From Methanobacteriota archaeon (GTDB lineage Archaea > Thermoplasmatota > Thermoplasmata > SG8-5 > DAIRED01), in the NCBI GenBank assembly GCA_043799545.1, contig JAZDNO010000005.1, positions 64,001 to 128,000 of the forward strand: a stretch of 64,000 bases of DNA, in the 5' to 3' direction. Of this stretch, positions 28,151 to 31,246 are shown piece after piece. How positions within the stretch are numbered: the first letter of the stretch is position 1; each line of letters starts with the position of its first letter. Position numbers and translations under genes: made by a program. The notes beneath the pieces were generated by a model that saw only the letters and a program-made list of their open reading frames with translations, was not told the DNA's origin and did not search any database.

Positions 28151-28282
28151 GGCTATTCAAAGAGTCACGTTAATTATAAAATAGGTATCCGTCAGACAAG
28201 AAATATTGGACGATTTTGATAGCTAACTGGTTGGACGCGTCTCTCGGCGTTTGTTAATTGTTAGTTCTGTCAGATTGGCTCG

Positions 28283-28645
28283 CTATTTTGAATTCATTCT
28301 CTCAATTAAATCCGTTTTTGTATATTTAGTGGTTATATTATTATATGAACGTTTTCGTACTTCTGCAGCATGTACAAATACTGCGCGCTGAAGCAATTCG
28401 ACGTAGGCACTTCTTTTCAATCGATATAGCTTTATTCTTCCTTTCCCAACAGGCCTAGATTCAACGATTATTGCAACTCGCTCTAGATATAAAAGAGAAT
28501 CTCTAATGGCTGGAAGTGATCGATCCAATGCTTCAGCAATTTCACTCACGACGTAATCGAATCTAGGATGCGCCAAAAGAAAATCAAATACTTCTATATC
28601 GAGTTTGGATCGAAACATATCTTCAATCATGTTTCTCTCCTCCAA
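28283..28645 (-). CDS. winged-helix DNA-binding protein (low-GC island)
   Basis: EVFDFLLAHP..DYVVSEIAEALDRSLPAIRDSLLYLE...GRIKLYRL; GGAG RBS. Confidence 0.7.
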   Translation of the reverse strand: MEERNMIEDMFRSKLDIEVFDFLLAHPRFDYVVSEIAEALDRSLPAIRDSLLYLERVAIIVESRPVGKGRIKLYRLKRSAYVELLQRAVFVHAAEVRKRSYNNITTKYTKTDLIERMNSK

Positions 28646-29822
28646 TTAAATTGTATGTTTTGCATATAATAATACAAATTTTTCTATGCCCTGATATAAT
28701 AAATGTTAGTGATATGAGTAACGCATAATTGTTTAATTTATTATATAAAGAATCTAACTTATTTGTATTATAAAAAATAGATAAATTTCTATCGACACTT
28801 TTATAAAAATAACAATAAAACTCATTTTCCACATCGCATTTTACAATGAAGCCCAACCTTGAAATCTTATTATTATCATTAAGTTGTAAAAGGCAAAGTA
28901 ATAAGATTGCCAGTTGTAAATACTGGTGAAGATCATTTTTGTTATTTATTGCGATGGTAAGATTCGTTGATGCACTCATTCTATTGAAGACATCAAGTGC
29001 GTTCGTGTTCTTAGAGGCATCAACTTCGAAAGGGAGTATTAAGATTCCAATTGTTGAAATTCCCATTGATTTTGCAACTTCAGTTACATATGGGGCGGCA
29101 CCAGAGCCAACTCCTCTGCTGAGATCTGCGAGGACGATGGTTTTGTCGGCGCCTTCTAGCACGTCATGGATCTCTTTATCACACCTGGCAGAGCACGCCT
29201 CTCCAATCTCGGGGTAGGTATCGGACTTACCAAACGTCGGGTCCATATCCTTGCAGAAACCCAGTCCCTTGGCCCGGTGGAGGTTCTCGTTGTCCATGGC
29301 GATGGTCAGGTTAGTCGAGCCCTTCATTCTTTTGAGATACTCCATGGCGGCCGCGCGCCTCGGCGCCTCGGCCGCGAACGGCAGGACGACTATGTCGAAG
29401 GTGAAAATCCCCATGGACTTCGCCACGTCCGCAACGTAAGGCGCGGCGCCGGAGCCGACACCTCCTCCGAGGCCGGCCACGACAATGGCCATGTCCGCCC
29501 CGTTGAGGGCCTTGCGGATTTCCGCGTCGCATCTGGCCGTGCACGCCTCCCCCACCCCGGGATAGACCGCCGATTTGCCGAAGGTGCGGTCTCTGCCGAC
29601 CTGCACGACTTTGCCCGATTTGGCTTTCGTCAGGCTTGCCCAATCCGAGTTGAGGTAAGTTGCGGTGATGTTTGGCAGAGCGCTGGTGATATGTTTGTCA
29701 GGTTTGTAGCCTGCGTCGCAGCAGGCGATTATTCGCAAGCCGTGGTTCCAGGTCAGCTCTCGTTTACACTCATCGCGCTCTCTGGACATCACGTCTGATT
29801 CGCAGATTATGGCTGGTGTCAT
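28623..29822 (-). CDS. degenerate FtsZ/tubulin-like protein with tandemly duplicated GTPase core
   Basis: Tubulin-signature-like VAGLGGGVGSGAAPYV plus a second copy LADLSRGVGSGAAPYV. GGAGG RBS before ATG 29822. No T1 GGG loop and no recognisable C-terminal (T7) domain. Confidence 0.75.
   Translation of the reverse strand: MTPAIICESDVMSRERDECKRELTWNHGLRIIACCDAGYKPDKHITSALPNITATYLNSDWASLTKAKSGKVVQVGRDRTFGKSAVYPGVGEACTARCDAEIRKALNGADMAIVVAGLGGGVGSGAAPYVADVAKSMGIFTFDIVVLPFAAEAPRRAAAMEYLKRMKGSTNLTIAMDNENLHRAKGLGFCKDMDPTFGKSDTYPEIGEACSARCDKEIHDVLEGADKTIVLADLSRGVGSGAAPYVTEVAKSMGISTIGILILPFEVDASKNTNALDVFNRMSASTNLTIAINNKNDLHQYLQLAILLLCLLQLNDNNKISRLGFIVKCDVENEFYCYFYKSVDRNLSIFYNTNKLDSLYNKLNNYALLISLTFIISGHRKICIIICKTYNLIGGEKHD
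28926..29585 (-). repeat. internal tandem duplication of about 103 codons (29277-29585 and 28926-29237)
   Basis: TFGKS...NLTIA..N.N.LH occurs twice; about 60% aa identity by manual alignment. Confidence 0.9.
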
Positions 29823-29956
29823 CTTCTTTCCTCCACTTTCGCTAGCTCTTTGCGACGTGCTGTCGTCGTGCATCCCATCCTTCCGCCCGGCTGGCATGGC
29901 TTACCCCGCCTGCTCGCGAGAGCCGGGCGACCGAGAGTCTAAACATCGTTGAGGTC

Positions 29957-30349
29957 TCATCTAGAGGCTATCAACTGCTTGTTCTCGGTTACACTGAGGG
30001 CTACTTCCTGTCCCGAGGACCGCGCCATGACCCTGAACCGCTCCTCTAGCCGCTTGACCTGGTCGGCCTCGAAGAAGATGTCAATCATTCGCCTGAGAGC
30101 CTTCTCCCTGCCCGAAAACCATCCGTTCTTCACGATGCTATCGAGGTAGTTTATCTCGGCCGGAGACAACTCAACGCAGATTGGCACGTCCTGACCCGGC
30201 GACGGTTCCTCCATCGCTTGGTCCAGGGCGATTCTGACCAGCTCGGACCTCGTGAGCCCGAGCCTCTTGGCCCTCTCCGTCACGCTGTTCACGTACTCGG
30301 GAGAGAGTCGTATGGTCATTCGCTCGTTTACTTTTTCCGCCTGATCCAT
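29957..30349 (-). CDS. ribbon-helix-helix (CopG/CdrS-like) regulator, probably tandem RHH
   Basis: ERMTIRLSPEYVNSV...LGLTRSELVRIAL, then a second ICVELS...GWFSGREKALRRMI unit; directly upstream of the FtsZ-like gene. Confidence 0.75.
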   Translation of the reverse strand: MDQAEKVNERMTIRLSPEYVNSVTERAKRLGLTRSELVRIALDQAMEEPSPGQDVPICVELSPAEINYLDSIVKNGWFSGREKALRRMIDIFFEADQVKRLEERFRVMARSSGQEVALSVTENKQLIASR

Positions 30350-30378
30350 TGTTCACCCTTTGCGTCGGTTATTCATCA

Positions 30379-30471
30379 TAGGACGCTGTAGGACATATAT
30401 ATCCTTCTTAATATAATATGTTTTCGCTTAAATTTATATATTTACCACTTTCAATTTTTAGGTGTAGGACA
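30379..30471. promoter_or_regulatory. TAGGAC direct repeats upstream of the RHH gene
   Basis: TAGGAC at 30379 and 30389 (10-bp spacing); TGTAGGACA at 30387 and 30463; flank AT-rich TATA-like tracts. Confidence 0.45.
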
Positions 30472-30670
30472 GAAATAATTACTAATATTATATAATATTT
30501 TAGAAAATTATATATATGAATTTACAGAAGATAACTTTATATAGCGATATAATCATAATAGTCACAATGAAAAATAGGCTTGTTGTTAGAGTGCATCCCA
30601 TCCTTTGTGCTGGGGCAAAGAATCCTCTCATCATGTTACTTACATTCACCATCTCCTGGGGAGGGTTATT

Positions 30671-30994
30671 ATGAAGAAAAAAGGGGCGATTTTGACCGAT
30701 TTTGATTTAATGTGTGCAATTATATACCTATTATGTATGTATAACACCCCTACAAGTGAAACCGAGATTCTCATGGGATCTCCACTTTCAATAAGGCTGC
30801 GTGTAAAAAAGCTTCTGTGTCTCCATTCGCAGGGCAATATTCCAATATTTCGCAAGGAACGCCGAAATGGTGTTTGGTATTATTGGATAAATCCAGAGGT
30901 TTATTCCGCTTGTATAGATTTACTGGCAGAAGAGAACTTTATTAAATTTGAGGATGCGTGTAAAATATTACAAAGGAAGAAGCCAGTAAAATAA
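30671..30994 (+). CDS. hypothetical protein, possible winged helix (low GC)
   Basis: GGAGGG RBS before ATG 30671; helix-turn-helix followed by a beta-wing FRKERRNGVWYYWIN. Confidence 0.55.
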   Translation: MKKKGAILTDFDLMCAIIYLLCMYNTPTSETEILMGSPLSIRLRVKKLLCLHSQGNIPIFRKERRNGVWYYWINPEVYSACIDLLAEENFIKFEDACKILQRKKPVK

Positions 30995-31022
30995 ATCTAT
31001 GATTATTTAATACACAAACCTA

Positions 31023-31158
31023 GCCCTAATTCCCCGACCTTCAGGTTGGGGATGTAGGGCGGGTAAGCATCGGCTAACCCGGAGCATCTTTTTAGCCATA
31101 CAAGGGTGTACCGCTTTACCAAACACGGGAGGAAACCATGTTCGAAACCTCCGTGTTT
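31023..31158. mobile_element. IS200/IS605-like terminal hairpin and adjacent stem-loops (non-autonomous remnant)
   Basis: GCCCTA-ATTCCCCGACCTTCAGGTTGGGGATG-TAGGGC resembles the CCCCRNCCTTCAGGNYGGGG end hairpins of this family; further stems at 31061-31080 and 31121-31158; no transposase present. Confidence 0.45.
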
Positions 31159-31246
31159 CTCATTCCTCACGGACGGGGGTACCCCTCTCGGGCGACCATG
31201 GCGCGTTTTTCGATAGTTTAATTACCCCCAATGGGTTGAGCAAATC

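Follow-up and report, generated by a model that had tools for sequence, protein, structure and literature searches.

An FtsZ-like open reading frame with an internal repeat

The 64,000-nucleotide stretch of DNA analyzed here (the window, in whose coordinates all positions are given) covers positions 64,001 to 128,000 of contig JAZDNO010000005.1, from a genome assembly of a Thermoplasmata archaeon (GCA_043799545.1). On the reverse strand, between the EF-1beta and rnp4/Rpp21 genes, it carries an open reading frame (ORF), designated P0001, which encodes an FtsZ-like protein in which one part of the GTPase domain occurs twice. Directly upstream lies a gene for a protein with two ribbon-helix-helix (RHH) units, and directly downstream a small winged-helix gene. 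The frame of P0001 is open across 424 codons; alignment with its protein family sets the likely start at Met26 (window position 29822), which gives a product of 399-424 amino acids (aa) and agrees with the start chosen in the first-pass annotation, a model's reading of the DNA letters and ORF translations. The two repeats, each covering the FtsZ GTPase domain from T3 to S6, lie at residues 105-205 (copy 1; 29585-29283) and 221-321 (copy 2; 29237-28935).

What the first-pass annotation had seen in the sequence holds up well. The repeat, which it had put at ca. 103 residues and ca. 60% identity, is real and comprises 101 residues that align without gaps, with 59% amino acid and 62% nucleotide identity. 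Copy 1 is indeed GC-rich and copy 2 AT-rich, both overall (65% versus 45% GC) and at third codon positions (GC3; 0.84 versus 0.44). The many synonymous differences that it had noted are reflected in a proportion of synonymous differences (pS) of 0.83, which is saturated, against a nonsynonymous proportion (pN) of 0.23. As described, T4 has the sequence GGGVGSG in copy 1 but SRGVGSG in copy 2, and the T1 loop is broken, reading CDAGYK where the family has GGAGCN. The AT-rich, hydrophobic tail is likewise present, at residues 322-424 (24.6% GC).

Tubulin/FtsZ GTPase (PF00091) is the sole Pfam family found in P0001 (E=1.9e-38, in two stretches), and the solved structures closest to the protein are FtsZ N-domains. 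FtsZ_C (PF12327), the Pfam family that holds the T7 synergy loop, matches neither P0001 nor P0002, a native paralog encoded elsewhere in the genome, and both proteins score below the equivalog cut-off of TIGR00065 (156.9 and 125.8 bits, respectively, against 295.2). P0001 also lacks the intact pair of nucleotide-binding loops, T1 (GGxGxN) and T4 (GGGTG[ST]G). Neither 5.8 billion clustered proteins nor 1.84 billion representatives yielded a second protein built in this way.

An insertion splits the gene

Copy 1 ends at Asp220, the first residue of helix H7. The remaining H7 codons survive ca. 1 kb downstream, where a short stretch of 14 H7 codons (DASNQLAIKIVQYF), followed by nine further codons and a TAA stop, resumes copy 1 exactly from Asp220 (Table 1). 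When three family members were used as tblastn queries, all of them pointed to this remnant, at 28241-28170. Its local DNA alignment with the native gene scores 29, a value reached by none of 500 shuffles (15.1 +/- 2.0). Moreover, the remnant begins with the same Asp codon, GAC, and all six of its conserved residues use the native, GC-ending codons. Because the H7 codons missing from copy 1 survive at 28241-28170, the DNA from 28242 to 29237 is inserted DNA. It consists of copy 2, the tail, the winged-helix gene and 41 nucleotides (nt).

DNA homology to the native locus, on contig C31 of the same genome, stops exactly at the junction between the two copies (29237), and GC3, at 0.85-0.95 before the junction, is 0.5-0.65 just after it and 0.1-0.4 farther on. 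The parts of P0001 on either side of this junction have exact words of at most 9 nt in common. No further copy of the insertion is present in the same genome or in that of a sister species (G001).

The tail frame is open at P ~2e-4 relative to Markov shuffles, and the other frames of this stretch contain 5-14 stops. No homolog of the tail was found among the 5.8 billion clustered proteins or the 1.84 billion representatives. A BLASTP extension had suggested that the tail is colinear with H7 and the C-terminal helix of the family; this candidate was dropped after a shuffle test, in which the score of the tail against the family profile (-2.3) was matched by 718 of 1000 shuffles and was thus not significant.

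P0001 derives from a family of half-length FtsZ proteins

The native paralog P0002 (275 aa, contig C31) is 72% identical to residues 31-219 of P0001 and ends shortly past helix H7. Its AlphaFold2 model (mean predicted local distance difference test score [pLDDT] 80) comprises an N-terminal helix, the GTPase domain, H7, one further helix and a disordered tail, and Foldseek places the model on the FtsZ N-domain plus H7 over ca. 185 residues at 1.5 A. About ten close relatives (254-276 aa, 63-86% identity) and a group of remoter ones (266-276 aa, ca. 33% identity), from Methanomassiliicoccales and Thermoplasmata, match PF00091 alone. As predicted from sequence and fold, a protein of this kind, which we call half-FtsZ, is an N-domain for GTP binding, H7 and a short tail, with neither T7 loop nor C-domain. 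The first-pass annotation had presented the missing C-domain as a feature of this protein; it is absent, but because every family member lacks it, this is a trait of the family and not of P0001.

In the native setting the genes run purS-purL-purQ, RHH gene (127-131 aa), half-FtsZ gene and a gene of 437 aa, an order kept in the same genome and in three metagenome contigs. Across the class, an FtsZ-like gene lies directly downstream of the RHH gene in 24 of the 24 RHH loci that were fetched. In most of them it is short and has no detectable C-domain; family f12 has retained a full-length FtsZ with its C-domain. The half-FtsZ of the cassette is ca. 260-300 aa across the class and 254-276 aa in the genus-level clade. 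The native cassette of the genome occupies positions 1306-2589 of locus L002 on contig C31, and the class loci are L012-L029 and L119-L141.

The genome also encodes three canonical FtsZ proteins, which hold its only three FtsZ_C matches. Two of the canonical genes, both full length, stand in tandem on contig C6 (L004/L005, ca. 27.5-30 kb) and the third is on contig C1, so that three canonical FtsZ and two half-FtsZ copies share a 2-Mb genome.

P0001 groups with the half-FtsZ clade and, like its other members, has a double-RHH gene upstream on the same strand. It departs from the family layout of N-domain, H7 and short tail, in that it encodes 399-424 aa and its H7 lies ca. 1 kb away, and it has not kept the invariant residues of the family.

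An FtsZ that retains the GTP-binding (top) face and lacks the T7 (bottom) face is expected to cap or block filament ends. Because a protein with the one face and without the other should do so, it is reasonable to suppose that the intact members of the family, P0002 and its relatives, rather than P0001 in particular, could act as caps or inhibitors of FtsZ filaments. We found no description of a double-RHH and half-FtsZ cassette in the literature searched.

Loss of invariant residues and predicted fold

Signs of decay in P0001 were scored at sites that nine family members hold invariant, 95 of them for copy 1 and 55 for copy 2. Copy 1 alters 12 of the 95, including six in T1/H1 (residues 60-68), whereas most members alter 0-4. 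Copy 2 alters 17 of its 55, three T4 glycines among them. The branch leading to copy 1 is also long (0.31, versus 0.03 for the native paralog), and nonsynonymous divergence along the branch (dN), derived from pairwise values, is ca. 0.13 for copy 1 and 0.03 for the paralog. Structure prediction, which the first-pass annotation had proposed as a check, gave a confident AlphaFold2 model for residues 50-212 only (pLDDT 83-95); from residue 213 on, pLDDT is below 50.

Copy 2 is not a recent duplicate of copy 1

The copy-1 part shares 72-74% amino acid identity with the family members P0002 and P0005. Within the repeat segment, copy 1 is 81% identical to the native paralog, at a synonymous divergence (dS) of ca. 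0.95, whereas copy 2 is only 62% identical to the paralog and 59% to copy 1. All comparisons that involve copy 2 are saturated at synonymous sites (pS 0.83-0.87), with pN/pS ca. 0.27. In a tree of the segment, copy 1 groups with P0005 and P0002 (support 86 and 99), and copy 2 is nested in the genus-level clade (support 88), with a branch some four times longer than the rest. The short FtsZ proteins form a clade with support of 99 in this segment tree; in a wider tree of N-domains the short forms are not one clade. No protein among the 5.8 billion clustered ones exceeded 62% identity to copy 2, and the family alignment, when scanned against viral contigs, returned no relative.

The pN/pS of ca. 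0.27, together with a tail that is open for 103 codons at 25% GC, suggests that copy 2 and the tail once formed a functional gene in AT-rich surroundings, prior to their joining with copy 1. The winged-helix ATG overlaps the P0001 stop by 8 nt and stands behind a GGAGG motif, an arrangement that fits an operon in the donor. The insert points to a third, AT-rich lineage of half-FtsZ that is missing from very large protein collections and may be borne by mobile elements. More specifically, it could be a fragment of an unsampled Methanomassiliicoccales plasmid or virus with its own diverged half-FtsZ, hydrophobic at the C-terminus, and a winged-helix regulator; we regard this as decidedly unlikely. 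If it were true, mobile elements would have taken up the half-FtsZ of their host as a means of disturbing its division, and the chimeric ORF might itself be expressed, as an FtsZ decoy that is free of nucleotide and tethered to the membrane.

The gene lies in a mosaic island

P0001 and its neighbors belong to an island of 3.05 kb (Table 1). In the sister species (contig C246 of G001), the flanking EF-1beta and rnp4 genes lie 14 bp apart and the island is absent; because the flanks are so close there, the island represents extra DNA. The only part of it that is homologous at the DNA level to the native cassette is 29237-30430 (76% identity). The remainder is AT-rich, and composition changes sharply at 29237 and 30430. 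Identity between the island and native cassettes varies along their length, from 82-95% across the RHH gene to 58-88% across the FtsZ part, which would be seen either if the FtsZ part had been released from constraint or if the RHH part had been homogenized by gene conversion.

The RHH protein of the island (P0004, CopG/ParD/CdrS-like) is 89% identical to its native counterpart, P0003, with a dS of 0.47 and a ratio of nonsynonymous to synonymous divergence (dN/dS) of 0.13, and the gene still looks functional as judged from its sequence. The protein apparently has two RHH units per chain (residues ca. 6-46 and ca. 58-100), of which Pfam detects the first only; since both units are in one chain, a single-chain RHH dimer fold is possible. 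A pair of GTCCTA repeats, 10 bp apart, lies at -35/-45 from the RHH ATG, just downstream of a TATA-like box. The pair is conserved in four genus-level loci (the window, L002, L007 and L009; at -32/-43 in L007), and a third GTCCTA stands ca. 100-120 bp upstream of the RHH start (about -121 in the window). These repeats are probably the operator of the RHH protein.

Two other genes of the island are orphans. The winged-helix protein belongs to no PHROG family and has no sequence homolog in large protein collections, nor does its gene recur elsewhere in the genome; look-alikes of the ArsR/MarR type emerge from language-model and structure comparison only. The AT-rich 107-aa ORF similarly belongs to no family or PHROG, and has no sequence homolog and no second genomic copy. 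Close to the rnp4 side lies the orphan end of an IS200-like element, ca. 90% identical to a copy on contig C12 of the same genome (L115:1501-1585) and also present in the sister species (contig C3 of G001). The C12 copy, which is a full one, is separated by ca. 60 nt from the beginning of a Y1_Tnp (IS200-like) transposase gene, and this gene adjoins one for a TIR-domain protein. Searches for tRNA and Rfam matches were empty in the window, the island and the repeat locus, and the island therefore has no tRNA-type attachment site.

Table 1. Features of the island and of the split half-FtsZ gene (window coordinates)
Feature	Position	Strand	Remarks
Mosaic island, 3.05 kb	28153-31202		Between the EF-1beta stop (28150) and the rnp4/Rpp21 start (31247)
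Stranded 3' remnant of the copy-1 gene	28170-28241	(-)	14 H7 codons (DASNQLAIKIVQYF), 9 codons, TAA
AT-rich insertion, ca. 1 kb	28242-29237	(-)	Splits the gene at Asp220; GAC codon on both sides
Orphan winged-helix (ArsR/MarR-like) gene, 115 aa	28283-28630	(-)	
Chimeric ORF (P0001)	28623-29897	(-)	Open across 424 codons
Tail, 103 codons	28623-28934	(-)	aa 322-424; hydrophobic; 24.6% GC
Copy 2	28935-29237	(-)	T3-to-S6 part of an apparent third, strongly diverged homolog; 5' end missing
Copy-1 part, codons 1-220	29238-29897	(-)	N-terminal GTPase domain to H7 start; repeat unit 29283-29585
Double-RHH gene (CopG/ParD/CdrS-like), island copy P0004	29957-30349	(-)	Pfam RHH_1, E=2.5e-7
Predicted promoter/operator region with GTCCTA repeats	30379-30470	(-)	Repeats at 30379-30394 and 30465-30470
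AT-rich orphan ORF, 107 aa	30671-30994	(+)	
Orphan end of an IS200-like element, ca. 100 nt	31006-31110		Subterminal GC hairpin

P0001 is probably a disrupted, decaying paralog

Our preferred reading, to which we assign a probability of about 0.65, is that P0001 is a disrupted and decaying half-FtsZ paralog, in which a fragment of a third homolog was inserted in frame into a spare copy of the gene. Among the options that the first-pass annotation had listed was a pseudogene still in frame, and it is this one that is favored by the ca. 1-kb split, the broken T1 and T4 loops and the absence of a confident fold past residue 212. Thermoplasmata carry the conserved two-gene cassette of a double-RHH regulator followed by a half-FtsZ of ca. 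260 aa, and in this Methanomassiliicoccales-like genome its native copy sits beside purQ. A second copy of the cassette resides in the 3-kb island that the sister species lacks, where the half-FtsZ appears to have evolved fast, losing its T1 phosphate loop before any insertion. The gene would then have been cut at Asp220 by ca. 1 kb of AT-rich DNA, probably through microhomology-mediated insertion or template switching, and this DNA would have brought with it the part of a more diverged third homolog from T3 to its 3' end, together with the winged-helix gene downstream. Because the join is in frame, translation would pass from copy 1 into copy 2 and the tail, and the result has the look of a tandem duplication. 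We infer that the product, if made, would have no nucleotide-dependent function of the FtsZ type and that the gene is heading for loss.

Several observations fit this reading less well. The frame remains open over 424 codons, including a very AT-rich tail; the overlap of stop and start codons behind GGAGG looks operon-like; and the locus is probably transcribed, given how well the RHH gene and the operator-like repeats are kept. Copy 1 still has a dN/dS of 0.14 relative to the paralog. The low AlphaFold2 confidence over copy 2 may be due in part to an alignment whose rows covered copy 1 only. No source of the AT-rich insert was found in the protein collections, the viral contigs, the same genome or the sister species, and its junctions are those of a draft assembly.

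An open frame of this length might instead indicate that the chimera is expressed with a new function, for example as a nucleotide-independent decoy that caps or inhibits filaments, possibly by docking on the T7 face of a canonical FtsZ of the host while the hydrophobic tail holds it at the membrane. Such a role would suit the 424 open codons (P ~2e-4 for the tail alone), the operon-like layout with the winged-helix gene, the conserved RHH gene and promoter/operator, and a copy 1 whose N-domain models confidently and whose dN/dS is below 1; it would also draw on the general expectation that filaments are capped by an FtsZ whose top face is intact and whose bottom face is missing. In Agrobacterium, over-expression of the truncated paralog FtsZ1 inhibits division (PMC13732431). 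However, the recent joining of two once-functional genes explains the open frame and the low dN/dS equally well, the architecture is unique to this genome, and P0001 has a broken T1, a broken second T4, a severed H7 of its own and no confident fold past residue 212. We consider a new function unlikely. The tandem duplication named in the first-pass annotation would imply yet another history, in which 116 codons (T3 to Asp220) were duplicated in situ, copy 2 then diverged, and the tail and winged-helix gene were inserted later between copy 2 and H7. A repeat that is gapless, in frame and directly adjacent is what this would produce; copy 2 does belong to the genus-level clade, a few derived residues are common to copy 1 and the stretch that follows copy 2 (e.g., LH after S6), and the H7 remnant might, in principle, be the continuation of copy 2. 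Yet copy 2 is no nearer to copy 1 (59%) than to the native paralog (62%), with saturated synonymous sites; side-by-side evolution leaves the jump in GC3 at the junction unexplained (0.85-0.95, then 0.5-0.65, then 0.2-0.4); two further events and the loss of the copy-2 linker would be needed; and a redundant copy drifting freely should not hold pN/pS near 0.27. Duplication in situ is thus very unlikely for a segment that is equidistant from both genes, has another GC3 and came with foreign AT-rich DNA, and the pattern that had been put down to selection after duplication more plausibly reflects purifying selection that acted in the past on two separate genes, prior to their joining.

That the chimera is an artifact, with AT-rich DNA of another organism or strain variant misjoined during assembly, is highly improbable. 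The genome is a draft of 31 contigs with 94% completeness, probably binned from a metagenome, and the changes in composition at 29237 and 30430 are abrupt. Nevertheless, exact matches between the copy-1 and copy-2 parts reach 9 nt at most, far below what would confuse a k-mer assembler, and the AT-rich pieces are embedded between host sequences, within a 152-kb contig that has host genes on both sides; for these reasons a misassembly is not expected. Furthermore, the H7 remnant on the far side of the insert is what a biological insertion would leave, and copy 2 and the host gene share one genus-level clade.

Thus, P0001 as a protein is most likely evolutionary debris and not a new, double-GTPase architecture of FtsZ. 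The locus is nonetheless of interest: it is a clean example of how the in-frame insertion of a homologous fragment can mimic internal domain duplication, and it draws attention to the double-RHH and half-FtsZ cassette as a natural candidate for a cap or regulator of FtsZ filaments.

Comparison with known FtsZ systems

Proteins with two Tubulin/FtsZ GTPase matches in one polypeptide are known from tandem, full-length FtsZ-FtsZ fusions in public protein sets (P0044, P0045, P0046 and P0185), which resemble P0001 in this respect. These are, however, two complete units of N- and C-domain, 730-840 aa in all, whereas P0001 has one N-domain, a partial second and no C-domain; P0044 and similar long proteins with two Tubulin matches were accordingly rejected as instances of the same architecture. 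Half-FtsZ shares with canonical FtsZ (e.g., M. jannaschii FtsZ1, PDB 1W5E/1FSZ) the N-terminal GTPase fold and its motifs, at ca. 30-35% identity, and differs from it, as represented by TIGR00065, in having neither the FtsZ_C domain nor the T7 loop.

Truncated FtsZ paralogs also occur in bacteria. In Hyphomicrobiales, truncated paralogs such as FtsZ1 and FtsZ3 of Agrobacterium are found beside the essential FtsZ and have been proposed to tune division, and continuous expression of FtsZ1 inhibits division in Agrobacterium (PMC13732431). Like these proteins, half-FtsZ is an extra paralog without parts of the full protein. Unlike it, the Hyphomicrobiales paralogs are bacterial, have an independent origin, are missing other parts and have no RHH partner, and none has been reported with an internal repeat or insertion.

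The closest parallel is the cdrS-ftsZ2 (parD-ftsZ2) module of Euryarchaeota, described in Halobacterium and Haloferax (PMC7439475, PMC8406309, PMC8178401), the synteny of which is reported to be widespread in archaea. In both systems a small RHH gene stands directly upstream of, and co-oriented with, a gene of the FtsZ family, here in all 24 of the fetched RHH loci, and family f12 retains a full-length, C-domain-bearing FtsZ in the downstream position. The RHH protein matches Pfam RHH_1, and against the aCcr1 family (NF053762) it reaches E=0.008 and 16 bits, below the cut-off of 60. The synteny, with the full-length RHH-linked FtsZ of family f12, would fit an assignment of half-FtsZ to the FtsZ2 lineage; a tree built without named FtsZ1 and FtsZ2 references placed half-FtsZ in neither lineage. 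The differences are that the RHH protein is a tandem double of 127-131 aa, where cdrS encodes a single small RHH, and that the FtsZ encoded next to it is devoid of both the C-terminal domain and the T7 loop and, in the window copy, is split by an insertion as well. Taken together, the double-RHH and half-FtsZ cassette looks like a derived cdrS-ftsZ2 module.

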